IMG/VR virus record: IMGVR_UViG_3300002026_000001
Coordinates: 32,001 to 96,000 of that record
Origin: a virus
DNA: 64,000 nucleotides
Direction: 5' to 3' (one strand)
Shown: positions 17,904 through 32,541 of the stretch, in pieces
Numbering within the stretch: position 1 is the first letter of the stretch
Layout of the letters: each line of letters starts with the position of its first letter
Notes under the pieces: generated by a model
Seen by the model: only the letters and a program-made list of their open reading frames with translations
Told to the model about the DNA's origin: nothing
The model's database searches: none
Program-made: the position numbers and the translations under genes

Positions 17904-20579
17904 CTACACGTGGCCCAAATTTATAAGCACCAGTCCAAGGTCGTTGATAACGACTGGGATGCTTGAAAGGTCGGGTTGGTTGTTCGATGCTTGCTGCTTG
18001 TCGGACGTAGGAGCGGCGGTCGGTGCAGGTGCCTGTTTCATATCTTCGGCGTTTGCAACAACTACTTTCTTCGACTCTTCAGCAGCGGCAGTGCTTACTT
18101 TCGGGAATGCTTCTTTTCTCGTGCTCAGTACTTCAGGTGCGGTCGTGGCAACTTGCGTAGGCAACTGAGTTGTCGTTGTAGATGATGGAGTAACTGGCTG
18201 TGGCTTCGACGAGTCAGCCTTCGCTAGTTCAACAGGCTTCTTCACAGCATCAACTTGAGTTGGGTTTGCAGCGTACTTGTTTGCAGCGGCCAACTTCTTG
18301 TCGGCAACTTCCTTCAAGTAACCTTTGTTGATGTTGTTACCTTCACCAGCGATTGCCTGTGTCGTTGCTCGGCTTGCTTCATCAAGGCTCATATCGTTCA
18401 ACGCTTTGCCACTCTTGCGTGCAACGTTTTCAGTGCGGTCCTTGGTGTATGCGACCGCAAGCTTCGCGGAAACCTCTGGATCATTTGCAAGTTCTGGATT
18501 CTTCACCAGCCTGTCATCACCGTAAATCTGTTGGCTGTACTTGGCGTAGTTGTCTTTTCCAGTCAGTTGAATATGACCGCGACCACGGAAATCGTACCCA
18601 CCCATGTCGCCATACATCTTGTCGCCAAACGCTTTCGGGTCTTGCTTCAACGCCGTCAACTCGTCGTCAGACATACCCTTCGTCTTGGACTTGAAGATTC
18701 CACGAATACGCTCGTTGCTTGAACCAGCGTAGTTCATGTTTTCGGACTTTGCATTGAACCCACTCTCGACCGCAATGTTTCCCATCAGAGCAGCTTGAGC
18801 GTTCTTGCTCATGCCTGACTTTTCCATTTCAGCAACGAGTGCTTTCTTCTGCGTTTCCGTATCAGCGTTGTACGTTCCTTTGATGTCACCAGCCGCTTGC
18901 TTGACTGATGCTCCAATATCACCCATACCACGTTTTGCAGTACGCGTACCTTGGTCGATTACACCTGCAACGCCGCGTTCTTGGTACCCTTTCTGAACTG
19001 CACCGACTGTCGCGCTTGCGGTATCACCAACAGCGGTCGCAACGTTGCGAACGCCGGACCCAACACTTGATGCGACGTTGCCGACCTTCTCAACGCCTTG
19101 ATTGAGCGCGGCTTTAGCACTGCTCCAAGCACCTGAGAACATACCACCGAGGTTGCTGATACCTTTCTCAAGGTTGTCACCAAACTCTGCGACTCCGGTC
19201 TTAACGCTCGTGCCGAAAGCTTCAGCACCTTTTTGAATTCGATCACCAACTTCTTCAAGCTTCGGACCGAAATCATTCTTCAAGGCATCACGTGCATCTT
19301 TGCTGAACGGCGACAACACAGCAGCCATTGTCGTACCGAGCGCAGTGTCGATACCAGTACCGTCGAGAAGACCACCTTTCTCACCAGCGTCTTCACGCCT
19401 GTCTGCAAGTATTCTATCTGTCCAACTGTTGCCGCTATCGTTCCACAGTGACGATGGATCAAGTGTTTGAGCAATATCAGTTGCAGCACCACCAGCACGG
19501 AGAGCAAGAAACTTCGCCATGCTTCCCATAGAGCCGTCGCCAAGATCAGACGTATCAGTTCCAAAACGTCTTGCGTAACGGTCTGTCGAATCTTCTTTAC
19601 TTCCTTCGGTGACTGCACCAACCGCTGCAAGTGGTGCGGCAATGTGTCCGAGGAAACGTCCAGCGGTTCCCAACATTGGAGTGGCACGTGTCATCAAACC
19701 GCCACCGGCTTCAGCGACTTTACTCAGCAGACCACCACCGGCTTCAGCCGCTTTACTGAACAAACCACCACCAGCACGCATTGCTGTTGCGCCAACTTCA
19801 CCGATAGTTCCAATTGCACGTCCACCAGCACCGAGTGCAGAACGACCAAGACCGGCAGCGCGACTAAGCAGACCACCGGACTCTGAAGCACCTAGAACAT
19901 TGCGACCAGCACCCAACACTCGTGAACCGAAGCCAGAAACCGTTTCGCCAATTGATCCAAGCGCACGTCCAACACGACCAAACCTCCCTGCCTTACCTAG
20001 ACCGGGAGGTTTCTGTGGACCAATCTTTGCAGCTTCTTTTGCAGCTTTACGGCCTTGCTTCCAGTCTTTGAAATCCTTCCACGCTTCACGCGCATCCATC
20101 ACGTCATCAACGATTGACGACTTTGCGTTTTGGAATGCTTGACGCGCTTTGGCAACGTGTGAAAGTTTCTTCTCGCCAGTACCGCTTTGGCCGTCACGCT
20201 TTGAATACGTGTCGTCTTTACTGTTTGGCGGAGGGGCAGTCTGCTTGACCAACGTCTTGTTGAGTTCCGTCATCAGCTTCAACTGCTTTGCAATTTCTGC
20301 AAGATGGACGTTTGTTTGCTTCGCCGACCCTTGATTCAACTCGCTAATACGCTGGAACGAAGTCACTGTCGCACGAATACCACTTTTGACAGAGTCCTTC
20401 AGAGAACCAATGCCACCAACAACTGAACGCGTTTGCTTTTCTGCCTCAGCACCACGCTTTCCGGTCAGGTCAGCAGTGTTGCCAGTGTTTGCCGCCAACG
20501 CTTCAAGAAGTTCTTGCGGACTTGATTGGTCTGCTTCCTGTTTTTCGCGGACGGATTTCAAATAATCTGCTAGTGACAT
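17904..20579 (-). CDS. Tape measure or hub protein with GH19 (chitinase-like) muralytic domain
   Basis: Gly/Ala-rich helical region; ALMGNIAVESGF...FRGRGHIQLTGKDNY...NPELAND GH19 signature; downstream of tail tube and chaperone genes. Confidence 0.75.
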   Translation of the reverse strand: MSLADYLKSVREKQEADQSSPQELLEALAANTGNTADLTGKRGAEAEKQTRSVVGGIGSLKDSVKSGIRATVTSFQRISELNQGSAKQTNVHLAEIAKQLKLMTELNKTLVKQTAPPPNSKDDTYSKRDGQSGTGEKKLSHVAKARQAFQNAKSSIVDDVMDAREAWKDFKDWKQGRKAAKEAAKIGPQKPPGLGKAGRFGRVGRALGSIGETVSGFGSRVLGAGRNVLGASESGGLLSRAAGLGRSALGAGGRAIGTIGEVGATAMRAGGGLFSKAAEAGGGLLSKVAEAGGGLMTRATPMLGTAGRFLGHIAAPLAAVGAVTEGSKEDSTDRYARRFGTDTSDLGDGSMGSMAKFLALRAGGAATDIAQTLDPSSLWNDSGNSWTDRILADRREDAGEKGGLLDGTGIDTALGTTMAAVLSPFSKDARDALKNDFGPKLEEVGDRIQKGAEAFGTSVKTGVAEFGDNLEKGISNLGGMFSGAWSSAKAALNQGVEKVGNVASSVGSGVRNVATAVGDTASATVGAVQKGYQERGVAGVIDQGTRTAKRGMGDIGASVKQAAGDIKGTYNADTETQKKALVAEMEKSGMSKNAQAALMGNIAVESGFNAKSENMNYAGSSNERIRGIFKSKTKGMSDDELTALKQDPKAFGDKMYGDMGGYDFRGRGHIQLTGKDNYAKYSQQIYGDDRLVKNPELANDPEVSAKLAVAYTKDRTENVARKSGKALNDMSLDEASRATTQAIAGEGNNINKGYLKEVADKKLAAANKYAANPTQVDAVKKPVELAKADSSKPQPVTPSSTTTTQLPTQVATTAPEVLSTRKEAFPKVSTAAAEESKKVVVANAEDMKQAPAPTAAPTSDKQQASNNQPDLSSIPVVINDLGLVLINLGHV

Positions 20580-20613
20580 AATGTTCTCTCGGAGTGGCTA
20601 ACCAGTACGTCTA

Positions 20614-20802
20614 TCAATACATCTTGACCATGTTGCCTTTACGGGCGGCAGCAGTGTTGGCGTCTTCTCGGTCTTTTTTGTACTTGGAATAGAAGTACAG
20701 GAGTTTCAAGCTTGGCATGGAGTCATCAGATTGCAACCCACGATACTTCAGTAGGTCATACTCCATGTCAAGCAAGTCCTCCTCCGAGGCTATTGGAAAA
20801 AA
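20614..20802 (-). CDS. -1 frame extension of the tail assembly chaperone (G/GT-like), 62 codons, absent from the ORF track
   Basis: Open frame FFPIASEEDLLDMEYDLLKYRG...KGNMVKMY-TGA-TAG beginning at the slippery T TTT TTC and ending 34 nt before the tape measure ATG. Confidence 0.7.
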   Translation of the reverse strand, partial: FFPIASEEDLLDMEYDLLKYRGLQSDDSMPSLKLLYFYSKYKKDREDANTAAARKGNMVKMY

Positions 20803-21569
20803 CTTAACGCATTCAGCTTCAGCTTTGTCGTGTGTTCAACACGGCAGCGGTTGCAGAAGAATGTAACTTCCTCGTCAATACCGTGGATGGTCTTACGGTT
20901 AATGTCGAGTGCTTCGCCAATCAAATTGGGGTTTGCTTCCGCCGCAGCAAGTTTTTCGGCCCACGTGTTACCGGCAATCCACTGGACCGCAGGTGCAATG
21001 TACGCCATTTCAGGATCAGCCAGTGCAGCAGCGCGATCTTCATAAATGTTCATACGTGGGAAGTCGAAACCTTCGGGCAATGAGAAGTTCTCGTCAAGAG
21101 AAAGAATTCGTGTGTCGGTGTCGTGTAGGACGCTCGTGTTTTCCGTGTTGCATTCCGAGGCGTCGTACTGTTCTTGAAGTTGTTCGACAGTGGGCCACTT
21201 GTCTTGCGAATACAGAAGCGGTTGCTTCGTTTCCTTGTGGACAAAGTATGGCTGGTGGCATTTCCATTCAGTGATGTATGGAGACTTCGGCATGCTCTTG
21301 AGACGTAGCCAAAGCATTACGTAGTAAAAATCACCAATCGTCAGACGCTCGACTGGGTAGGAGATAACGTTGTCAACTGCGCGGAGCAGGTGAGACATTT
21401 CTCCAAGTTGTGCAGCGACCGACAGCATCTTGTACTCGGCAAGTTTGAATGGCCGAATATAAAACGTAGCCATGTCCAGATACGGAATACCTTGCGATGG
21501 CAACACGCCAAGGTCGTGGAACGTCGCATCTTGCGCGATCTGTTGTAGCTTCTCGGTATCACATTTCAT
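20790..21569 (-). CDS. Tail assembly chaperone or baseplate hub assembly protein (gp26-like)
   Basis: IRPFKLAEYKML, LTIGDFYYVMLWLRLKS, C..C Zn motif, LNALSFF end; lies between tube and tape measure genes. Confidence 0.7.
   Translation of the reverse strand: MKCDTEKLQQIAQDATFHDLGVLPSQGIPYLDMATFYIRPFKLAEYKMLSVAAQLGEMSHLLRAVDNVISYPVERLTIGDFYYVMLWLRLKSMPKSPYITEWKCHQPYFVHKETKQPLLYSQDKWPTVEQLQEQYDASECNTENTSVLHDTDTRILSLDENFSLPEGFDFPRMNIYEDRAAALADPEMAYIAPAVQWIAGNTWAEKLAAAEANPNLIGEALDINRKTIHGIDEEVTFFCNRCRVEHTTKLKLNALSFFQ
20796..20802 (-). other. Programmed -1 ribosomal slippery heptamer T TTT TTC
   Basis: AGT TTT TTC CAA TAG at the 3' end of the chaperone ORF; fits X XXY YYZ. Confidence 0.7.
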
Positions 21570-21580
21570 GTCATGTCCTT

Positions 21581-22093
21581 TTATTTAAGAAACTTGATTT
21601 TCATCGAGTCGACGCTGAAGTTTTGATTGAACGTAATACGTTCGCTACCCTCAGACGTTAGACTCAGTTGACCAGTGTCAGCCGGCCAACAACCACTGTA
21701 GGTGAGTTCAATCACTTCGTCACCTTTGGAGTCAAGCATTACAACAACCCAATCTTCCTTGAAGTCTTCTGGAAGGTTGTACAACGAAGTTGAAAAGTCC
21801 TTTACCTGCTGTTTCCAATTCCAGATATATTTCAGCGCGTTGCCATTACCGTCACCGTAAAACACCACGTTGAAAGCTGAAGTGTCGTGGAATTCAGGGA
21901 AGTAGTTGTAACCACCACCCATAAACACTCCAGTTGCTTTGACGTTGCTGAATGGTATTTCAAAGCTTTCAACATAGTTGGGCGTTACACCGTAGGCTTG
22001 GCCGCGAGGTACGTCCCGAACAATCCACCTAAACGCGAGTAGAGGATCGGGGCGTCGAAGCAGCATGCCAAGTTGAGTCATTTCAGACGCCAC
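21581..22093 (-). CDS. Tail tube-like protein (gp19 family paralogue)
   Basis: LTYSGCWP..TGQL.L...ITFNQNFSVD tube fold; adjacent to the main tube gene. Confidence 0.7.
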   Translation of the reverse strand: MASEMTQLGMLLRRPDPLLAFRWIVRDVPRGQAYGVTPNYVESFEIPFSNVKATGVFMGGGYNYFPEFHDTSAFNVVFYGDGNGNALKYIWNWKQQVKDFSTSLYNLPEDFKEDWVVVMLDSKGDEVIELTYSGCWPADTGQLSLTSEGSERITFNQNFSVDSMKIKFLK

Positions 22094-22110
22094 GATTTTT
22101 CCTCTCGCCG

Positions 22111-22653
22111 TTAGGTAGTGTAGCCGCCGGTCTTGTCGTAGTAGTCAAACTTGAACCCGATGCTGTGGGTAATCAAGTTGCTGCTGCTACCATCGAACGA
22201 TGTTTCAGGAAGTGACGACGGCCAGATGTTGTACAACGTGTAGATCAACGCTGCATCACCCTTGTTGTCAAAGATTGACAGGACGGCGTTCGTTGCATAA
22301 CCAGTGGCAGCACCATCACCCTTGAACGCACCGTGCTGAGTTTGTGTGCCGCGAATCATTTCGGCCCACTTCTCGAAGATGCGGATAATACCGCCGCGAA
22401 CGTTTTCCACGTACGTGACGTTGAGGTCGTGGTTGAAGGTCTTGTTACCGGCGTAAACAACGCTGTGGCCAAAGAGGGCCACTGCTACTTCATTTACAGT
22501 TTCGCCCGGCTTCGTTGCTTGCTGGCATTGGATCAACAGTGGCTCAGATGCGCCGCTGTCGTTTGGTACTTGCGGAAATTCCAGAGTGAAGTGGTCAGAC
22601 ACCATCGGGTCTTTGATGACGCTCAGGATTTTCCCTAATTGGGGCTTGGGCAT
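22111..22653 (-). CDS. Tail tube protein (gp19-like)
   Basis: IQCQQATKPG, YAGNKTF, FEKW, YTLYNIWP, FKFDYY signature. Confidence 0.85.
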   Translation of the reverse strand: MPKPQLGKILSVIKDPMVSDHFTLEFPQVPNDSGASEPLLIQCQQATKPGETVNEVAVALFGHSVVYAGNKTFNHDLNVTYVENVRGGIIRIFEKWAEMIRGTQTQHGAFKGDGAATGYATNAVLSIFDNKGDAALIYTLYNIWPSSLPETSFDGSSSNLITHSIGFKFDYYDKTGGYTT

Positions 22654-22688
22654 AACAGATACTCCTAGAACATTGAATGGTGACGAGT

Positions 22689-22898
22689 TCAGAACGTCGT
22701 CGGTTGTAGTACTGCACGATTCAGGGCCATCAAACCAGTTTGCAGATCAGTAGCACCAATGTTTACCCAACGTTGGTCGAGTTCTTTTGTATGCCGCATG
22801 TCTGTAATAAGAGTGCCAAGTTCTGCACTCTTTTTTGCAATTTCTGCGAGGAAATCAACGTCTGGTGGCCTAACAGGAATGATTCGACTTGTATTCAT
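22689..22898 (-). CDS. acb2: Anti-CBASS cyclic-oligonucleotide sponge, Acb2 family (divergent N-terminus)
   Basis: C-terminal RWVNIGATDLQTGLMALNRAVLQPTTF closely matches the recalled Acb2 C-terminus [27 protein letters not shown]; TAATG overlap with the sheath stop. Confidence 0.8.
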   Translation of the reverse strand: MNTSRIIPVRPPDVDFLAEIAKKSAELGTLITDMRHTKELDQRWVNIGATDLQTGLMALNRAVLQPTTF

Positions 22899-24493
22899 TA
22901 GGCACCCGTTACGCGAACCCCAGTCTTGTTGATGATTGCATTGAAGTAAATACGCTTCGCTGGCAACGTCGGATCACACCAGAGGTCGACGATCATGTCA
23001 CCGGCGGCAATCGTATCAGGCAAGTTGTTCGTGTCGTCACAGATAGCATCAAACGCGTACAAACCTTCTCCATCCTTGATCTGCTGCAAGAACTTGCGGC
23101 AATTCATTTGGATGCGGCTGCGCAACAGTTGGTCATTAGGGTCAAAGACACTGTAGAGCAACGAGTTTGCAATCGTCTTTTCAATCACGATCATCAAGCG
23201 ACGCACGTTGATGTTGCTCAACGCACTTGGCATGACCTGAAGTGTATCAGCACCCCAAACCTTGATGCCAGCACCTTCAATGACACGGATTGCATTGACT
23301 TGTGAGTCGTACAGTGCATCGCGCATACCTTGATCGTAGACCTTGCGAACACCGGCCACCACCAAGTCACCGCGAATCATACCAGCCGGTGCAAACCATT
23401 GACGGAAGTCACGGTCAGTACGAGCATAGCAAGCCGCGATCATGCCGCTCACCGGAGTGTAGAGGCGAATGTCGTTGTACTTGTCAGCAACGTACACGTC
23501 AGGCGTATACAACGCTGAGTACGAACTGTCAAGATGCAGAGTATCGCGTCGGAAACTGATCACGTCTTGCAACGCTTGCATGTCGCTCGGGGCATCGAGA
23601 ATTGCGATGCAGTCCATACGTGCTTGGCACAGGTCATCCAGCGCCATTTGGAACGATGGGTCTGTGATGCCGCTGTTGATAAACATGCTAACCTGAATGG
23701 CTTCAGGGTCTTGGTAAAGATCAAGGGCGTTTATGAAATCCGACGTCGTCGCGCGAGTACCGTCAACACCACCAACCAGTTGGATACCGGGAAGACTTGC
23801 GTTTCCACCGGTCAGCAACGTGTTGACCAACTGCGCTTTCGGGTTTGCAACAAACTCGGCGTTGTCTTCGTTCTGCACGATACGGATGTAACCGGATTTG
23901 CGGTTGATCTGCTCGGCAACGTTTAGCTGCACACCAAACCCGTCAACAACATGATCGAGGCTGCAATACCATGACTCGACCGGAAGCGCGATGCTCTGCA
24001 CGAACACTTGGATCGTGAAGAAGCCGACGCCGCGACGCGGATCAGTATTCGGAATCACACGAATGCACAGGTCACTGTTCCACGCGCCGGGGTTGATCGC
24101 GTGGACAGCAAACAGGCCGTTTGCTTCAAAAGCAATGTCATCAGGTGACGCAACACCGGACGCGAACGAAGACGAAACGTTTAGCGTGTGTGCTGCATTG
24201 CGGCTGACTTTACACCCACCAAGCAAAGCACCCGGTGCGACCCGCGTGACATACAATTGGTTGCCTTCTGTCAGGAAAGCGAGTGCGCTGTAACCCAACC
24301 AGCTTAAAGACGCGTCAGGCTTGCCAAACAAGTTGACGTAGTCGCTTTCTGACGTCACCAACGTTGCTTTTCCAACTGGACCTCGACGTGCTTCGCCGAT
24401 CACCACACCAATGGTGGCCAAAGACATTTGCGGCCTTTGGCTAAAATCGTTTTCAGTCACGTAGACGCCCGGACTTGTACCAGTGATACTCAT
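22898..24493 (-). CDS. Tail sheath protein (gp18-like)
   Basis: SPGVY..E.D, FGKP, WFAPAG..RG, VWG..TL, INVRRL, IYFN motifs; start at MSITGTSPG. Confidence 0.92.
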   Translation of the reverse strand: MSITGTSPGVYVTENDFSQRPQMSLATIGVVIGEARRGPVGKATLVTSESDYVNLFGKPDASLSWLGYSALAFLTEGNQLYVTRVAPGALLGGCKVSRNAAHTLNVSSSFASGVASPDDIAFEANGLFAVHAINPGAWNSDLCIRVIPNTDPRRGVGFFTIQVFVQSIALPVESWYCSLDHVVDGFGVQLNVAEQINRKSGYIRIVQNEDNAEFVANPKAQLVNTLLTGGNASLPGIQLVGGVDGTRATTSDFINALDLYQDPEAIQVSMFINSGITDPSFQMALDDLCQARMDCIAILDAPSDMQALQDVISFRRDTLHLDSSYSALYTPDVYVADKYNDIRLYTPVSGMIAACYARTDRDFRQWFAPAGMIRGDLVVAGVRKVYDQGMRDALYDSQVNAIRVIEGAGIKVWGADTLQVMPSALSNINVRRLMIVIEKTIANSLLYSVFDPNDQLLRSRIQMNCRKFLQQIKDGEGLYAFDAICDDTNNLPDTIAAGDMIVDLWCDPTLPAKRIYFNAIINKTGVRVTGA

Positions 24494-24504
24494 AACTGCT
24501 CTCC

Positions 24505-24870
24505 TTAACTCCAAAGATACTGAAGGCGAATACGATCAACGCCATCTGGTGGTGAAATTATTACACTTCCTGTCTCACCGTTGTTAATAAAAAGACCTCT
24601 GCACTTCAAGGTGATTGACGTTGCGGCACCTGAAATGTCAACTACGAAGTCCTCTAAGCTACTCAACATCAAAACTGATTTTGTTGGGGGGATGTGCAGC
24701 GGACTCAACGCCGTTATGGTCACGTCGCCTTGGTTGAATACGCTGTCTGTAGGAATCGGTGCAGCTACGGAGCCTTTCAGGATGACAGACCGTGTAAGCA
24801 GGTCTGCCAACTGTACTTTGAATTCCGTGACTACAGTTTTGTCATAGGGAAGATGTTTCGGTGTGCTCAT
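24505..24870 (-). CDS. Hypothetical virion protein
   Basis: ORF in the tail operon with GGAG RBS before MSTPKH. Confidence 0.6.
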   Translation of the reverse strand: MSTPKHLPYDKTVVTEFKVQLADLLTRSVILKGSVAAPIPTDSVFNQGDVTITALSPLHIPPTKSVLMLSSLEDFVVDISGAATSITLKCRGLFINNGETGSVIISPPDGVDRIRLQYLWS

Positions 24871-25516
24871 GTGGCAACTCCACTTCAAATGGCTGTTCGT
24901 CATTGATCGTAATGCTCATGAGTGGTCCGCGTCCGTTGACTGCGCTTACGTCACGGAAGAAACCAATCTGTGCGTGCATAACGAATTGTACATTCACGTC
25001 ACTAGCTCCGGGTGTTTGAGGACTCTGCTCTTCTTGAATGTTGACCGTCGCATCCGTCGGAATCTCCATGCGGACTGCAAACGTAAACATATCGCCAACA
25101 TCAATCTGAAACGTGAGGCCGTCTGTAACACTCAGAATCACGAGTGATTGCGCCATGTTGAGTAAGCGTTTTTGATCGCTGTCAACGTAGTGGAATTCGA
25201 GTCCCAACGTGATCGGGAACAGGTAACCCTTCTTACTTGTTGCTCTGTCAACTGATGGAAGACGCACGCCGTGCTTACGAACTGCGTAGTTGTTCTGCTG
25301 GTCTTTCATACCGGACAGTGCTTGCAGCAGGAAATACGAATATGGGAATTCCATCTTCTGCTTTTCACGTGCGCGCCGGACCATTTCCTGCTTGGTTGTT
25401 TCCGACAGTGAGAAGATGACGCTCTTAATGTCCAGTTCCCGTTCAAGCACAACACGCACTCCATGTAGCGCCATGTACAACATGTTCTCTTTTGCAAGCT
25501 CGGACAATAAGGACAT
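24842..25516 (-). CDS. Tail terminator or sheath stabiliser (gp15/gp3-like)
   Basis: Position upstream of the sheath; MEFPYSYF...PITLGLEFHY...QFVMHAQIG pattern; GGAGAG RBS. Confidence 0.55.
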   Translation of the reverse strand: MSLLSELAKENMLYMALHGVRVVLERELDIKSVIFSLSETTKQEMVRRAREKQKMEFPYSYFLLQALSGMKDQQNNYAVRKHGVRLPSVDRATSKKGYLFPITLGLEFHYVDSDQKRLLNMAQSLVILSVTDGLTFQIDVGDMFTFAVRMEIPTDATVNIQEEQSPQTPGASDVNVQFVMHAQIGFFRDVSAVNGRGPLMSITINDEQPFEVELPHEHTETSSL

Positions 25517-25531
25517 AGACTCTCCCAAAGT

Positions 25532-25569
25532 AAAAAGCCCCGCCCTTCTTTGCAAAAAGGCAGGGCTTT
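25532..25569 (-). terminator. Rho-independent terminator
   Basis: Minus strand AAAGCCCTGCCTTTTTGCAAAGAAGGGCGGGGCTTTTT, a GC stem followed by a U-tract. Confidence 0.7.
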
Positions 25570-25586
25570 GTGTTTTGCTTGATAGA

Positions 25587-26237
25587 TCAGTCTTTCATTA
25601 CAACTGGAGACTTCACTTCAGTGTTCTTGATCCTGACGCTGGAGAACGAGACAGGAACGAGTTCTTGGCCGGGGTAATCGGGATCGAGACCGAGGTCTTG
25701 ATGTTCATCCTCATCACCATCTTCGTCGTCTTCGTCATCACCTTCATATGCGGTGTCTTCAGACGCCAGTGCTTGCATGCTTGCCGAAAGGATTTTTCCG
25801 ATTTGGAACAGTGACGTTGTCTTACGGCGCGTAATGCTTGATACCGAAATCGTGTCGGGTTCGCCACCGTCTTCAGTACCCCAATCATCTTCGCCAGAGC
25901 TTGTTGAATCAACTGCTTGGTCACGACCGGGCGTTGCTGCAAGTTCTGCATCAGGGCCGGTTTCACTAACCTTGCCGTCCTTCGGATCGTTTTCGACGTC
26001 TGTTTGTTCAACGTCAGCTTCTTCACCGTCTTCAACCAGACCGTCTTTGGTCACGGCGTTAGCATCGGGATTAACTTCGCCGTCGAGACGAATCTCTCCG
26101 GGTTCAGTTGTCAGTTCAGCGATCAATGCGTCAGCGCCCTCTGCACCACTTGCTTGTGCAAACAGAACACCAGCGTCTTCGTATTGCTTTGCCTTGAATG
26201 CGGTCATTGCAAGGGCTAGAAACTTTTTCGCGCTCAT
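25587..26237 (-). CDS. Acidic head-associated hypothetical protein
   Basis: D/E-rich 216 aa directly after the MCP; contains SVSS and SFSS motifs. Confidence 0.65.
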   Translation of the reverse strand: MSAKKFLALAMTAFKAKQYEDAGVLFAQASGAEGADALIAELTTEPGEIRLDGEVNPDANAVTKDGLVEDGEEADVEQTDVENDPKDGKVSETGPDAELAATPGRDQAVDSTSSGEDDWGTEDGGEPDTISVSSITRRKTTSLFQIGKILSASMQALASEDTAYEGDDEDDEDGDEDEHQDLGLDPDYPGQELVPVSFSSVRIKNTEVKSPVVMKD

Positions 26238-26300
26238 GTTTGTACTCCGTGTTAGATTTCTCAGATAAGACTACACACGTACATCGTATACTCTTATGTG

Positions 26301-26335
26301 AGAAAGACCGCCACCAATCGAAACTGGTGGCGGCC
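26301..26335 (-). terminator. Rho-independent terminator after the major capsid gene
   Basis: CCGCCACCA-loop-TGGTGGCGG stem followed by TCTTTCT on the minus strand. Confidence 0.75.
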
Positions 26336-26374
26336 ATTCAACATCACACCGATGCAACGATGTTTAGTACAAGC

Positions 26375-27469
26375 TTAGATACGCTTGCCCTTGGAGACCG
26401 AACGCGGGTTCGCAAGAACCATCGAGATCACTTCGGACAGCAGCCAGCCGCGTGACGTGTTGCCGGAATCAGCACCAGTCGTCGGTTCGCTACGAACACC
26501 GCCACGGTCACTGAAGCAGCCGTGATGTTCCGGTGTCGACACAACGTAGATTTCGCCGCGATTCAGAACCTTCTGGTTCGGTTGGCGGAAGCCGTCCGTC
26601 AGCAGGGTCAGGCCGACCAGCGTACCGAGTTGACCGTTCATGACCAAGTCGTACTTGGTGACGGGGTCAAGGAACGAAGCGAAGTCGTTGTTGCCGACAA
26701 TGTCTGACCAGAAGTCATTGGAAATCAGCGCGGTGGTGGCCGGGAGATTCCAGTCGGTGATGCCTTGGCGAATTGTTGCGAGGATTTGCGGTGTCAGTTG
26801 ACCACCGATGTAGTTCAGCGGATTCACGACGCCGACGGTCATGTCAGCGGCTTGTTTCCACAGCTTGTCTTCAGCAACCATGACGCTGTCGAGACCCTGA
26901 TTGTACAGGTTGTCAAGAACGTCGCCGCCGACTTGTTCCATTTCCAGACGGTCAACACGCAGGTTCGCCACGACTTCAAATTCAGCCGGGTAGAATTGCT
27001 TGTTGCGGATCATCTGGTATTGGACGTTGGCCGGGCCGGTTGCAACAACCGACATTGCATCCCACATCGGAACGTTGACGCGCGGCAGTTCGCCTTGCTT
27101 CAGGTTTTGACCGAGCATGATGCGACGCAGGAAACCTTCGCGGTTGCGTTGTTCCTGAATCTGCACGGCCAGATCAGCACCGAGGCTGGACCACTTGGCC
27201 GGATCAGCGTAAGCAGCGACAACAACTTCGCGACGTTCTTGAGCGAGTTGCTGTGACTGTTCGGCTGACAGAGATTGTTGGACGATTGCGCCTGACGACA
27301 TCGAATCAAACATCGTCGTGATGGCACGAATCAGTTCTTTCTTGTCGTTGGCGTTGAACTCGCCGTTGGATTCTGACAGAAGGCGCAGGTTGGAACCGGG
27401 CGCACGAAGGTCAGTGATAGGTGCGCCCGAAGCAAGGACTACTTGAGCGGCGGCATAAGGGTTCTTCAT
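26375..27469 (-). CDS. Major capsid protein (HK97 fold)
   Basis: 364 aa, after scaffold and decoration genes, followed by a strong terminator; HK97-like E-loop and P-domain pattern (FLRRIM...FEVVAN...EDKLW...GQLGTLVGLTLLTD). Confidence 0.85.
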   Translation of the reverse strand: MKNPYAAAQVVLASGAPITDLRAPGSNLRLLSESNGEFNANDKKELIRAITTMFDSMSSGAIVQQSLSAEQSQQLAQERREVVVAAYADPAKWSSLGADLAVQIQEQRNREGFLRRIMLGQNLKQGELPRVNVPMWDAMSVVATGPANVQYQMIRNKQFYPAEFEVVANLRVDRLEMEQVGGDVLDNLYNQGLDSVMVAEDKLWKQAADMTVGVVNPLNYIGGQLTPQILATIRQGITDWNLPATTALISNDFWSDIVGNNDFASFLDPVTKYDLVMNGQLGTLVGLTLLTDGFRQPNQKVLNRGEIYVVSTPEHHGCFSDRGGVRSEPTTGADSGNTSRGWLLSEVISMVLANPRSVSKGKRI

Positions 27470-27507
27470 AACTCAAACTCCTGATTATCTGTGTGAAAAA
27501 TTGCTGA

Positions 27508-28188
27508 TTAACCGACGTTCAGTTCGAGAACGAGGAACGGGTTGCCTGAGTTCGGGCTGTTCTTGACAACAACACCGACGAGGCCGGTGGCTGCGTCAGC
27601 AGGAACGAAAACGCCGCCGTCTTTCAGTTTTGCGTAGGTGGCAGTCGACCAGTCAGCCGAAGCATCGAAGAACGACGTACCAACTTCACCTTGCTTGACA
27701 CAAGCGAGAGTGCCGAGTGCATTTGCGGCCAGACCACCGTAAGGCGCGTCACCGATGATGGTGCGTGCTTCGGCAACCGACAGCGCGTACATGTATTGGA
27801 ACACAACCTTGTGACCAACAGTAGCGGCGTTCAGTGCGTACTCGTTACCGGTGATTTGAACTTCACCAGCGGCGGGTGCAGCAACAACGATGTCTTGCTT
27901 GACGCCGTCGACCGTGACCAGAAGTTGGCCGGTGATCGGAGTGCGTGTCAGCTTGCCGGTAGCTGAAGCGGAAACAACACCTTCTTCAACAATCGGGTAA
28001 AACGCCGGAGGCATGTTACGGGCCATTGCAATACCGGCGAAACGACCACCAGCCTTGCCGATTTGGATTTTGGTTTCGCCGTCGACCTTGATGAAGGTCA
28101 TTGCGACGCCCTCTTCTTGAATGGCTACGCCGGGAGCGAGATTCTCGAAGAGTGACTTGTACAGACGAGTATTACGAAGTTGCAGCAT
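27508..28188 (-). CDS. Head decoration or cement protein (putative)
   Basis: Beta-rich 226 aa directly upstream of the MCP; strongly biased codon usage. Confidence 0.6.
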   Translation of the reverse strand: MLQLRNTRLYKSLFENLAPGVAIQEEGVAMTFIKVDGETKIQIGKAGGRFAGIAMARNMPPAFYPIVEEGVVSASATGKLTRTPITGQLLVTVDGVKQDIVVAAPAAGEVQITGNEYALNAATVGHKVVFQYMYALSVAEARTIIGDAPYGGLAANALGTLACVKQGEVGTSFFDASADWSTATYAKLKDGGVFVPADAATGLVGVVVKNSPNSGNPFLVLELNVG

Positions 28189-28213
28189 GGTTTAAACTCC
28201 TAAAAAATTGCTC

Positions 28214-30046
28214 TTACCGAATGCGACGGCCGAGAGATTGTACAGCACGTTTTTGATCTGGACCAGCAACTACTGTTGCGGCTGGTGCCGGTTGGGCTGA
28301 CGATGTCGAAGTGCCAAGTGTTTCAAGGCGGGATTCGATACTGTCATCTTGAGCAGCACCACTAATTGCTTGGTACGTAGTGCCTAGAACTGCTTTTGCC
28401 AAACTCTCTTGCACTTCCTTCGGCTTTGAAGCAATATCTGAAGCCTGTGCAAAGAGTGCTTTGTGGTACGCGTCGGAATGATTCTTGAACGTCGCGTCAA
28501 TCAAAGCTTCCGGTGAACGAATACCGGCGCTGTTCATTGAAGCCCACAAAGATGCCTTAATCGGGTTTTCAACACCAGTGAAGAAACCGCGATTGATACC
28601 GATTGCAGCCGTTGCCAAGGCAGCCATGAAGCTTTCCTTGAACTCTGCTTGATCGGCAGAAATGCTTGTGCGTTGTGATTCAACTTCTTTGTCAACCATG
28701 CGACGCACTTCGGCGGATACCGAAACTTTGTGCTTGATCGGCGTGAAGCCAAGTTCGTTCAACGACTTCTTGATACCGGCAACCTTGGCAGTGGCCAGAA
28801 CTGCTTGACCAAACTTCGGCGTGTCAAAGATGTCGGCGTTCTTGCCAGCACTTGACTTGCTTGCCATTGCAACCGGAACGCCCTTGAAGTATGCGGTCCA
28901 TGCAGCCTTGCCAGCAACACTTGACGAGTATGAAACGTCCAGATCGGCAGAGTCGGATTCTTCACCAACATCAGCGTCAGCGTCGAGTTCTTCAGTGTCT
29001 TCTTCCAGCACGTTGCCGGAATCTTCATCGGTCAAACTCAGCGTGTTGTCATCTTCGCCCATGCCGTCACCCTCGTCAGATTCAGGTTCTTCAACTGAAG
29101 AGTGGCAAGCCGGGCATTCCGTGATTTCTTGCGTCGACACGATGTGCGCAGCGCAGTCACTTGAAGCGCAAAGCATGTAGTGTGCGTCGATGTTGCCTGA
29201 CGACAGTGATGTTTGCGGAAGATGTTCACGCATCAGTTGCGTTGCTTTGCTGAGTGAGTCGGCGGCGATTACAACTTCACCGTCATCGTCGTCCATTTCG
29301 GGAAGCGGCTCTTCATCTTCAGCATCACCGGCGTCATCACCAGCTTCGTCACTTTCGCCTTCGGCGTCAGCGTCATCACCAGCGGAGTCGTCACCAGCGT
29401 CATCACCAGCTTCTTCATCGTCAGCAGCATCGTCACCCTCTTCAGAGTCACCAGCAACATCTTCGTCACCGGCGTCTTCTTCAGCGCCAGCTTCTTCGTC
29501 GTCACCTTCATCAGCCGAATCAGACTCTTCGTCGCCGAGGCCGTCGTCTTCGTCAATGTCGCCGTCGTCTTCACCGAGGTCATCGCTGTCATCATCAGAG
29601 TCGTCGCCAGATTCGGCTTCAAACTCGTCACCGGTTTCGGCGCTGTCTTCAGGACCGTCGACCAAGTCTTCGTCATCTTCCGACGCGTCAGACAAACTCG
29701 ATGTGCAGTTGGGGCAGAACTTCACCAATGTTTCGCTGTCGAAGACAACGTGGGTTCCGCAACCGGACGTGCAAACCAAATGATTCACTTCAACGTCGCC
29801 GCTGGAGTTCGATTGGAACTCAAGCTTCGCGCAAAGTGCCGCATCTGTTTCAAGGTCCATGTTACCGGACATGGGATTGAACATCCCGTCGGCAGAACTG
29901 GCATGGGTAACGAAAGCGATGTCACGCTCACCGTCAACCTGTACGGCGGCACCTTTACCCATAGCAAGCAAACGATAATTGTTCACTGCCGAAGCTTTGG
30001 TGCGACCAACAGCCAGAATACCGTGAAACTTTGTCTTTTTAGACAT
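28214..30046 (-). CDS. Prohead scaffold-like protein, very acidic, with two Cys4 motifs
   Basis: Long D/E-rich tract; duplicated C-x3/4-C...CPxC units; lies between protease and MCP. Confidence 0.6.
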   Translation of the reverse strand: MSKKTKFHGILAVGRTKASAVNNYRLLAMGKGAAVQVDGERDIAFVTHASSADGMFNPMSGNMDLETDAALCAKLEFQSNSSGDVEVNHLVCTSGCGTHVVFDSETLVKFCPNCTSSLSDASEDDEDLVDGPEDSAETGDEFEAESGDDSDDDSDDLGEDDGDIDEDDGLGDEESDSADEGDDEEAGAEEDAGDEDVAGDSEEGDDAADDEEAGDDAGDDSAGDDADAEGESDEAGDDAGDAEDEEPLPEMDDDDGEVVIAADSLSKATQLMREHLPQTSLSSGNIDAHYMLCASSDCAAHIVSTQEITECPACHSSVEEPESDEGDGMGEDDNTLSLTDEDSGNVLEEDTEELDADADVGEESDSADLDVSYSSSVAGKAAWTAYFKGVPVAMASKSSAGKNADIFDTPKFGQAVLATAKVAGIKKSLNELGFTPIKHKVSVSAEVRRMVDKEVESQRTSISADQAEFKESFMAALATAAIGINRGFFTGVENPIKASLWASMNSAGIRSPEALIDATFKNHSDAYHKALFAQASDIASKPKEVQESLAKAVLGTTYQAISGAAQDDSIESRLETLGTSTSSAQPAPAATVVAGPDQKRAVQSLGRRIR

Positions 30047-31560: not shown

Positions 31561-32541
31561 TCAGAATGAACGAGCGTCGTAAACCGTTGGGCCGATTGCG
31601 CTAACAAACGCAGGTGTGTTGACACTTGAGCATTCAAACCCGATCCCATCTTCACACCAGCGGTGTGCAAGAACACCGTTCGGCATTTGGTATGTCGGCT
31701 TGCCCATTTGCGTGTGCGAACACGGACTAAGGTTGATACCACGACCGACGCGAGTCCCGCAGACAGAGCACGAGTAACTCTTGTAATAGAAGCCGACGCT
31801 GTAAGCGTTGTTCTCATTGCGCAGAATCGACTCTGCAAGTGCACTGTCTTTGGTGCGGTCATACGCAAGCAGCAACACGATCTTGTAAAACTTGTTGTTG
31901 AACGGGACCGGACGCAAGAACGAATCAAGGATCACACCTTTCGCTTGCGTGATGTCTTTGTTCTGATGTTCGACGTGTGTCGGCTTTCCCTTAAACGTCT
32001 TGTACATCTGCATGCCGAACTCTGGATCGAAGCGCAACATCTGTTTGAGCGTCAGACCATCACCGTTTGTGTTTGGCAACCCACTGAAGATTGCGGGGAT
32101 CGGCACCAACACATAGTCGCGAATGTCACGCGACAGACAATAGTGTTCCGCAGCGTAAGGCAACCAGTAGTTGCAATCAGACACGCGCTCGGTGAACCCT
32201 GTTCCAGACACGGTTTCAGGAACAATGATTTCCTTCGTGCCTTTCTTAAGCTGCTCACCTGCAAACGGCAGCAACGAACTCAGTCCAAAGCTGTTTGACG
32301 CAAACCGTTCAGGAATGTCAATCAACGGAGCGCCGTCAGCAGCGCACAAACTTGTTTCTTGACTGGCGGTAAATGAAGGTGTGTCGCTTGACACAAACTT
32401 GTAGCCACGCGAAATTGGAATCAACGCACCAACCGGTGCGCTATTACGTGACACAAGAAACGTGTTGTTGTGACTTGGACGCAGTGAATAGCCTTGCGAG
32501 GTCGCCCACTGTTGTGCGTTGTCAATGATAATCATGGTCAT
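31561..32541 (-). CDS. Prohead (capsid maturation) protease
   Basis: PN.NGD, HVEHQNKDITQAKGVILD, YSVG...CSVCG, FECSSVNTPAF herpes/HK97-type protease motifs; upstream of scaffold and MCP. Confidence 0.8.
   Translation of the reverse strand: MTMIIIDNAQQWATSQGYSLRPSHNNTFLVSRNSAPVGALIPISRGYKFVSSDTPSFTASQETSLCAADGAPLIDIPERFASNSFGLSSLLPFAGEQLKKGTKEIIVPETVSGTGFTERVSDCNYWLPYAAEHYCLSRDIRDYVLVPIPAIFSGLPNTNGDGLTLKQMLRFDPEFGMQMYKTFKGKPTHVEHQNKDITQAKGVILDSFLRPVPFNNKFYKIVLLLAYDRTKDSALAESILRNENNAYSVGFYYKSYSCSVCGTRVGRGINLSPCSHTQMGKPTYQMPNGVLAHRWCEDGIGFECSSVNTPAFVSAIGPTVYDARSF

Follow-up and report, generated by a model that had tools for sequence, protein, structure and literature searches.

A short phage protein of the Acb2 family, encoded between the genes for tail sheath and tail tube, that appears to retain the residues of the cyclic-trinucleotide site only

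The tail operon and its additional gene

The window analyzed here, a stretch of 64,000 nucleotides, covers positions 32,001 to 96,000 of the IMG/VR record IMGVR_UViG_3300002026_000001, which has a length of 132,836 bp, a CheckV completeness of ~50%, and a single copy of the PF24729 domain. The open reading frame containing this domain lies on the minus strand (window positions 22689-22898) and, as read from the sequence and the list of open reading frames, is an intact frame of 69 codons followed by a stop codon; it matches the Pfam family PF24729, phrog_717, and the structurally characterized PaMx33 Acb2 (8H2J/8IXZ). Directly upstream on the same strand is the gene for the tail sheath protein (22898-24514, 538 aa; phrog_23, E 8e-86; Pfam Phage_sheath_1C and sheath domains), and directly downstream is the gene for the tail tube protein (22111-22653, minus strand, 180 aa; phrog_45, E 4e-25), followed by a second tube-like gene (21581-22093, minus strand, 170 aa; phrog_45, E 3e-14; syntenic with PaBG gp074) and a 259-aa baseplate-hub-like gene. 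The ATG of the acb2-like gene (22896-22898) and the TAA of the sheath gene (22898-22900) overlap by one base, forming a TAATG (22896-22900, minus strand) that can be read directly from the sequence. Thus, the arrangement given in a preliminary description made from the DNA letters, namely, a 69-aa frame with the C-terminus quoted there, located between sheath and tube and coupled through TAATG, agrees with both the sequence and the phrog and Pfam assignments, and the neighboring genes and the overlap bear out that it belongs to the transcription unit of sheath and tube and that its start is coupled.

Upstream of the acb2 start, there is no strong Shine-Dalgarno sequence, only GGGTG; the tube gene, separated from the acb2-like gene by a spacer of 35 nt, has its own AGGAG (22662-22666), 8 nt before the ATG. 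The acb2 frame remains open for 25 codons further upstream, but this extension contains no start codon, no GYR-like motif, and nothing resembling Acb2, so that a hidden longer N-terminus can be ruled out and 69 aa is the length of the full protein. No sigma-70-like promoter was found in 8 kb of the window (20500-28500), for which shuffled sequence gives 5.8 +/- 2.4, an absence that fits late genes read from phage-specific promoters. On the minus strand between 22465 and 25569, the sole terminator-like match is a weak hairpin inside the tube gene.

Several other features of the region were recorded. The strongest terminator-like hairpin of the region (25534-25569, minus strand; a 16-bp stem with 7 G-C pairs and a T-rich tail) is located just after the gene for a 216-aa acidic protein (25587-26237), within the 5' end of a 237-aa open reading frame (24842-25555). 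The two tube proteins are tandem paralogues (21581-22653, minus strand; 180 and 170 aa, both phrog_45), as they are in PaBG (gp075 and gp074). Downstream of the hub-like gene, an 891-aa protein rich in Ala and Gly is encoded (17904-20579, minus strand), in the C-terminal part of which a lysozyme- or chitinase-like motif (GNIAVESGF...GRGHIQLTGKDNY) can be discerned by eye; possibly, this is a tape-measure protein or an ejection protein that carries a cell-wall hydrolase domain.

The sheath protein is 39-40% identical to the sheaths of Phage NCTB and the Pseudomonas jumbo phage PaBG (both ~258 kb), and the tube protein is 44% identical to that of PaBG; megablast of 6 kb of the tail region against phages gave no match. 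We take the source to be a PaBG-like uncultured jumbo phage. In PaBG and NCTB, the sheath gene is succeeded by those for the tube, the second tube, and the hub-like protein, as it is here, but sheath and tube are separated by a gap of only 15-21 nt that contains no gene. Because the tube directly follows the sheath in both phages, the acb2-like gene represents an insertion of ~245 nt into a conserved late operon. In PaBG itself, a 198-aa open frame located away from the sheath and tube genes ends in a match to PF24729 that stays below the threshold (NC_022096.1, 21661-21843, minus strand; 25.2 bits, E 4e-6); this frame may encode a hairpin fused to an N-terminal domain. Neither Tad2 (PF11195) nor a 2H phosphoesterase (PF13563, our guess at an Acb1-like fold) turned up in searches of the 133-kb record, absences that carry little weight given a completeness of only ~50%. 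Location of acb2 inside structural modules is also seen elsewhere: in JBD67, the gene adjoins the major head (capsid) gene, in Mwe-JY05 it is next to the portal gene, and in Ab9 it lies between head-module genes, adjoining protease and head genes. According to Huiting et al., the position of acb2 is variable, and in PaMx41 the gene has middle-stage expression.

Family membership and the replaced N-terminus

The 69-aa protein is a true member of the Acb2 family, an assignment that depends on sequence comparison. The protein scores 38.3 bits against PF24729, the Acb2/Tad1 hairpin domain (gathering cut-off 27; E 1.6e-9), and also matches phrog_717. A phmmer search against all PDB sequences yielded PaMx33 Acb2 (8H2J, 8IXZ, and related entries) as the sole match (E 2e-5), with ~60% identity over the last 28 residues of the 69-aa protein. 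Two profiles of its relatives matched PaMx33 Acb2 over the full length (E 1.5e-22 and 1e-23) and T4 Vs.4 with E 0.03 and 2.5e-5. The search with an Acb2 profile that the preliminary description had put forward thus came out in favor of its family assignment, with PF24729 above the gathering score and both PaMx33 Acb2 and T4 Vs.4 recovered by a profile of the relatives; PADLOC and NCBIfam gave no match for the protein. All 13 nearly invariant positions of a 101-sequence alignment are kept (D41, R43, W44, I47, T50, L52, Q53, G55, M57, A58, R61, P66, and F69), and the C-terminal motif RW..IG.TD.QTG.MA..RA..QP..F is present.

From the same 101-sequence alignment, AF2 modeled the monomer with confidence as a hairpin of two helices (residues 16-35 and 42-64; mean pLDDT 87), whereas the N-terminal tail is poorly defined (residues 1-10, pLDDT 52). 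Comparison of this model with the PDB using Foldseek gave no match at E <= 0.001, and in a VIA-align search of 48,161 chains, T4 Vs.4 (7uq2) ranked 10th (Z 6.4, rmsd 5.2, 66 residues), on a par with dozens of helical hairpins from unrelated proteins. Because a hairpin of this kind resembles hundreds of unrelated chains, its fold does not suffice to place it, and therefore it is the sequence that carries the family assignment. The hairpin domain PF24729 is also shared with Tad1, which, however, has an additional N-terminal domain and gcADPR pockets, whereas the 69-aa protein consists of the hairpin alone and has an Acb2-type C-terminus. Given this size, the lack of an additional domain upstream, and the absence of Tad1 chains among the PDB sequences matched by the profiles of the relatives, identity with Tad1 was ruled out.

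Homologues of the 69-aa protein were detected in 99 phage records by tblastn; a word-index protein search found 42, and an exhaustive HMMER search of 1.84 billion representatives found 210 at E <= 0.001. The nearest relatives are short-hairpin Acb2 proteins of 74-77 aa, for example, those of the Acinetobacter phages Ac42 (p014) and Ab9 (CDS0006) and the Microcystis phage Mwe-JY05 (WWT39794), along with many metagenomic sequences. The first 40 and the last 27 residues of these short forms align almost one-to-one with PaMx33 Acb2, and ~19 residues of the hairpin tip are missing, in keeping with the original description of the family, in which the two termini are conserved and the middle is variable (bioRxiv 10.1101/2022.03.30.486325). 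The Acb2 of JBD67, with 108 aa, was rejected as a short form. The 69-aa protein has a hairpin of the same length as the 74-77-aa forms, is 82-89% identical to them over the last 28 residues, and shares with them the motif LDQRW..IGATDLQTG. At the other end, the two differ: the canonical short forms all keep IKGYR(D/E)L and K26 (in PaMx33 numbering, used throughout), whereas the 69-aa protein lacks both. Compared with PaMx33 Acb2 itself (AcbIIA1, gp26/p26, 94 aa; PDB 8H2J, 8H2X, 8H39, 8IXZ-8IY2, 8J8O), a member of the same family with a ~60% identical C-terminal helix, the 69-aa protein is 24-25 residues shorter, of which ~19 are accounted for by the hairpin tip and 5 by the N-terminus.

The difference at the N-terminus is abrupt. 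Identity to P0003, one of these short forms, drops from 89% over residues 42-69 and 55% over residues 22-41 to 33% over residues 13-21 and 0% over residues 1-12, compared with 80% conservation of the N-terminal 17 residues, and 86% of the next nine, within the canonical 74-aa set. It follows that the N-terminus was replaced rather than slowly eroded. The first 12 codons (22863-22898, minus strand; MNTSRIIPVRPP) are unrelated to the canonical MDNQHxxIKGYRDL and encode no aromatic residue at the Y11 site.

The sole other carrier of the variant N-terminus is P0002, a 70-aa metagenomic protein (from a JGI contig of 1185 bp) that is 65% identical to the 69-aa protein. Its N-terminus conforms to M-(N/D)-T-S-x-I-x-P...DVDF, sharing 5 of the 12 N-terminal residues with the 69-aa protein, and it likewise lacks IKGYR(D/E)L, Y11, and K26, the last of these being replaced by Glu. 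On the C-terminal tree, the 69-aa protein and P0002 are sisters (SH-aLRT 86). When viral and metagenome contigs were scanned, both with the protein and with its alignment to P0002, no third carrier was found, the matches starting only from residue 12-13. The presence of the same variant N-terminus in P0002 implies that the altered form has been maintained.

These observations also bear on the possibility that the gene is a decaying remnant or that its hairpin was co-opted for a role other than sequestration, such as tail assembly. The location between sheath and tube, the lack of a ribosome-binding site of its own, and the loss of the most conserved functional motif of the family would be compatible with such a fate. 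However, the frame is intact, every residue that is invariant across the family is kept, and P0002 retains the same architecture at 65% identity; furthermore, the nearest phages build the same tail module without a gene at this position, and other acb2 genes, in JBD67 and Ab9, also reside in structural modules. We therefore regard decay or co-option as highly improbable.

State of the two ligand sites and predicted specificity

Residues of the 69-aa protein were matched to those of PaMx33 Acb2 using MAFFT, an ungapped register, and a HMMER alignment to 8h2j. In the HMMER alignment, the Arg of codon 43 (22770-22772, minus strand) corresponds to R67 and the Thr of codon 50 (22749-22751, minus strand) to T74, both of which bind cA3 in PaMx33 Acb2; accordingly, the retention of these two residues, as originally proposed, holds. 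I71 is kept as I47 and P90 as P66, the latter being common to both proteins along with R67 and T74. A70, a hydrophobic contact of cA3, is replaced by Asn (N46), although Ser, Ala, or Asn is usual at this site in the branch of the 69-aa protein. The K26 position is occupied by Ala (codon 21, 22836-22838, minus strand), again as first described. The PaMx33 segment MDNQHKKIKGYRDL is replaced, and Y11 is absent. For this residue, the preliminary description had paired IKGYRD with IIPVRP; this pairing does not stand, given that Y11 falls opposite R5 in the MAFFT alignment and opposite I6 in the ungapped register, but the loss of Y11 itself does, because under any alignment there is no Tyr, Phe, or Trp before F16. 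Finally, at the pocket-lining position that is A88 in PaMx33 and F82 in T4, the protein has Leu (L64; codon 64, 22707-22709, minus strand), a rare residue there: among 146 representative relatives, 116 have Ala and only one has Leu. Taken together, R67 and T74 of the cyclic-trinucleotide site are retained, and Y11 and K26 of the cyclic-dinucleotide site are gone.

Acb2 proteins sequester cyclic oligonucleotides, the signals of CBASS-type immunity, and do not cleave them; the homohexamer, composed of three dimers, has 3 pockets at its vertices and 2 on its axis. The consequences of the changes in the 69-aa protein can be gauged from published mutagenesis. In PaMx33 Acb2, dinucleotides are held by two protomers through stacking on Y11 and a salt bridge with K26, and the Y11A or K26A substitution abolishes dinucleotide binding while cA3 binding and the inhibition of NucC persist (PMC10312549). 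The phosphates of cA3 are bound by R67 and T74, which are contributed by three protomers, and the two sites are independent: R67A abolishes the binding of cA3 and leaves that of cGAMP unaffected (PMC10312549). The roles given in the preliminary description for Y11 and K26, on the one hand, and R67 and T74, on the other hand, agree with this study (Cao et al., PMC10312549). In T4 Acb2, the Y8A substitution similarly abolishes dinucleotide binding (PMC12657218).

Based on the sequence and these mutagenesis results, we consider the best reading to be that the 69-aa protein is a sponge for cyclic trinucleotides (cA3, cAAG) with little or no binding of cGAMP-type dinucleotides, and estimate the probability of this reading at about one half. 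The helical hairpin scaffold and the trinucleotide pocket on the three-fold axis would be intact, whereas the N-terminal segment of the vertex dinucleotide pocket would have been exchanged for an unrelated sequence, with the loss of Y11 and K26. By sequestering trinucleotides, the protein would prevent the action of effectors that are switched on by cA3, among them NucC, in type III CBASS or type III CRISPR. The gene is an insertion into the tail operon of a PaBG-like jumbo phage, and its translation probably occurs by re-initiation at the sheath stop codon within TAATG, so that the product would be made alongside the late structural proteins; high late expression can reasonably be expected from the coupled start. 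The interpretation in the preliminary description is thus partly supported: the family membership, the states of the residues, the insertion, and the gene overlap are established by the sequence, whereas hexamer formation, the binding of cA3, the inability to bind dinucleotides, and how strongly and when the gene is expressed are what we infer under this reading.

The natural relatives with a single ligand class provide an argument for selection on the trinucleotide pocket. T4 Vs.4/Acb2 (PDB 7UQ2) and the Acb2 of Serratia phage CHI14, members of the same family, lack one of R67 and T74, and still bind cGAMP, with a specificity limited to dinucleotides (PMC10312549); hence, R67 and T74 are not scaffold residues. 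In the branch of the 69-aa protein, which we surveyed through representatives of 50%-identity clusters retrieved with this protein as the query, 140 of the 146 representatives have Arg at the R67 position and 135 have Thr at the T74 position, and such near-invariance argues for selection on the trinucleotide pocket. The T4 and CHI14 proteins would then be the mirror image of the 69-aa protein: in the former, the dinucleotide site is kept and trinucleotide binding is absent (PMC10312549), and the latter appears to be the reverse. The two residues are necessary but not sufficient, as indicated by the D61R substitution in T4 Acb2, which did not restore cA3 binding because helix geometry matters as well (PMC10312549). 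Our search of the literature found no published cA3 binding data for short-hairpin (69-77 aa) Acb2.

The same set of residues allows one to assess whether the protein could be an ordinary Acb2 with dual specificity, in which I6, I7, and L64 substitute for the stacking Tyr and K22 or K23 substitutes for K26. Three features are in line with this: P90, a hydrophobic base contact, is kept as P66; lysines are present one and two positions past the K26 site; and F82 of T4 Acb2, which occupies the position of L64, contacts and stacks on the dinucleotide (PMC12657218). Against it, a single Tyr-to-Ala or Lys-to-Ala substitution is enough to abolish dinucleotide binding in two distant homologues (PMC10312549, PMC12657218), Y11 and K26, both absent here, have been termed highly conserved (PMC10312549), and neither K22 nor K23 is retained in P0002, the sole close relative. 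We judge this alternative to be improbable.

Altered forms among the relatives and a possible re-targeting of the vertex pocket

Several observations speak against the reading of the 69-aa protein as a trinucleotide-only sponge, namely, the replacement of A70 by Asn (with Asn and Ser common at this site in the short forms), the rare Leu at position 88, and the character of the N-terminus, in which Ile, Val, Thr, Ser, and Arg are abundant and which is partly conserved with P0002. This partly conserved N-terminus together with L64 could represent a pocket that was rebuilt rather than lost. With only two sequences carrying the variant N-terminus, selection on it is not measurable.

The main rival explanation, accordingly, is that the vertex pocket has been re-targeted, with T3, S4, R5, I6, I7, and P8, along with L64, binding another immune signal, for example, the 3'cADPR signal that operates in type I Thoeris, whether or not the trinucleotide site functions as well; the preliminary description did not consider this alternative. 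There is precedent for such a change: 10 Acb2 homologues inhibit type I Thoeris (Hadary et al., PMC12393519), and one of these, Acb2_43, a hexameric member of the family whose N-terminus is non-canonical, uses T4, H5, L6, V7, K19, and K55 to bind 3'cADPR at the vertices and does not inhibit CBASS, which demonstrates that the vertex pocket can be re-specified (PMC12393519). The N-terminus of the 69-aa protein has a similar pattern, Thr/Ser followed by aliphatic residues, part of which it shares with P0002. The resemblance, however, is one of pattern and not of alignment; Acb2_43 is absent from the PDB sequence matches, and it has extra beta strands at both ends, whereas none are predicted for the 69-aa protein by AF2. 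Moreover, P0002 has Q, I, S, and L in place of the basic residues R5, R10, K22, and K23, a lack of conservation that would be unexpected for a phosphate-binding site, and residues 1-10 are modeled with low confidence.

The survey of related clusters adds one more point to this comparison. The K26 position is Lys or Arg in 96 of 122 related representatives. Among 104 representatives that could be scored at both positions 11 and 26, 69 combine an aromatic residue with Lys or Arg, 15 lack the aromatic residue alone, 6 lack the Lys alone, and 14 (the 69-aa protein and P0002 included) lack both. Position 88 is altered in 7 of 13 clusters without Y11 and K26 versus ~27 of 122 overall, a point in favor of re-targeting. 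On balance, we consider re-targeting to be rather unlikely, with a trinucleotide-only sponge remaining our preferred reading.

About one-eighth of the related 50%-identity clusters, then, lack both Y11 and K26, and this is an upper estimate because three of the representatives concerned (P0050, P0051, and P0054) are probably mis-called starts or chimeras. The C-termini of these three are near-identical to canonical ones, with very short branches, and their N-termini are unrelated (two of them hydrophobic and signal-like); they could also be real fusions. Complete short proteins in which both Y11 and K26 are missing and R67 and T74 are kept include P0055, P0099, P0102, P0141, P0088, P0169, P0095, and P0190, often with a residue other than Ala at position 88; P0055, P0099, P0102, and P0141 cluster on the tree. 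The resolution of the tree, constructed from the C-terminal 48 columns, is too poor for counting independent losses. Two long matches in the representative search, P0059 and P0137, turned out to be translated tandem repeats and were discarded as not being Acb2. Thus, the 69-aa protein is rare but seems to be one case of a recurring and apparently uncharacterized class of hairpins that have the residues of the trinucleotide site and lack those of the dinucleotide site.

Among the phage sponges directed against CBASS, Acb2 is the most widespread, and in the descriptions of the family, it is the dinucleotide site that is highly conserved and the trinucleotide site that is variable. The homologues tested so far have either dual specificity (PaMx33 and JBD67) or bind dinucleotides only (T4 and CHI14), so that a natural form restricted to trinucleotides would supply the mirror image that has been lacking. 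The 69-aa protein is a plausible candidate for a single-ligand variant of this known counter-defense protein.

A reason for phages to have such a variant could be provided by Panoptes, the type I form of which has been known since 2025 to be set off by the binding of dinucleotides to Acb2. In type I Panoptes, constitutively produced 2'3'-c-di-AMP silences a membrane effector, and its removal by a sponge leads to firing; T4 escapes through inactivation of acb2, and Acb2 with the Y8A substitution does not act as a trigger (PMC12657218). Type II Panoptes follows the same logic with cA3 and is triggered by PaMx33 Acb2, and the authors of that study proposed that phages could escape via sponges specific for a single nucleotide (PMC13577387). 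One can hypothesize that an Acb2 devoid of the Tyr and equipped with a trinucleotide pocket fits the escape prediction for type I Panoptes. More specifically, and speculatively, the dinucleotide-binding N-terminus could have been swapped as the tail operon acquired the gene, resulting in a trinucleotide-only Acb2 that neutralizes cA3 signaling without depleting the decoy dinucleotides of type I Panoptes; this scenario is unlikely in our estimation, but if it is true, the protein would be a natural example of the single-ligand escape proposed for Panoptes (PMC13577387). The 69-aa gene and the roughly one-eighth of related clusters without Y11 and K26 are candidates for examining this idea. If, instead, the rebuilt N-terminus binds a new ligand, the known plasticity of the vertex pocket of Acb2 would be extended.
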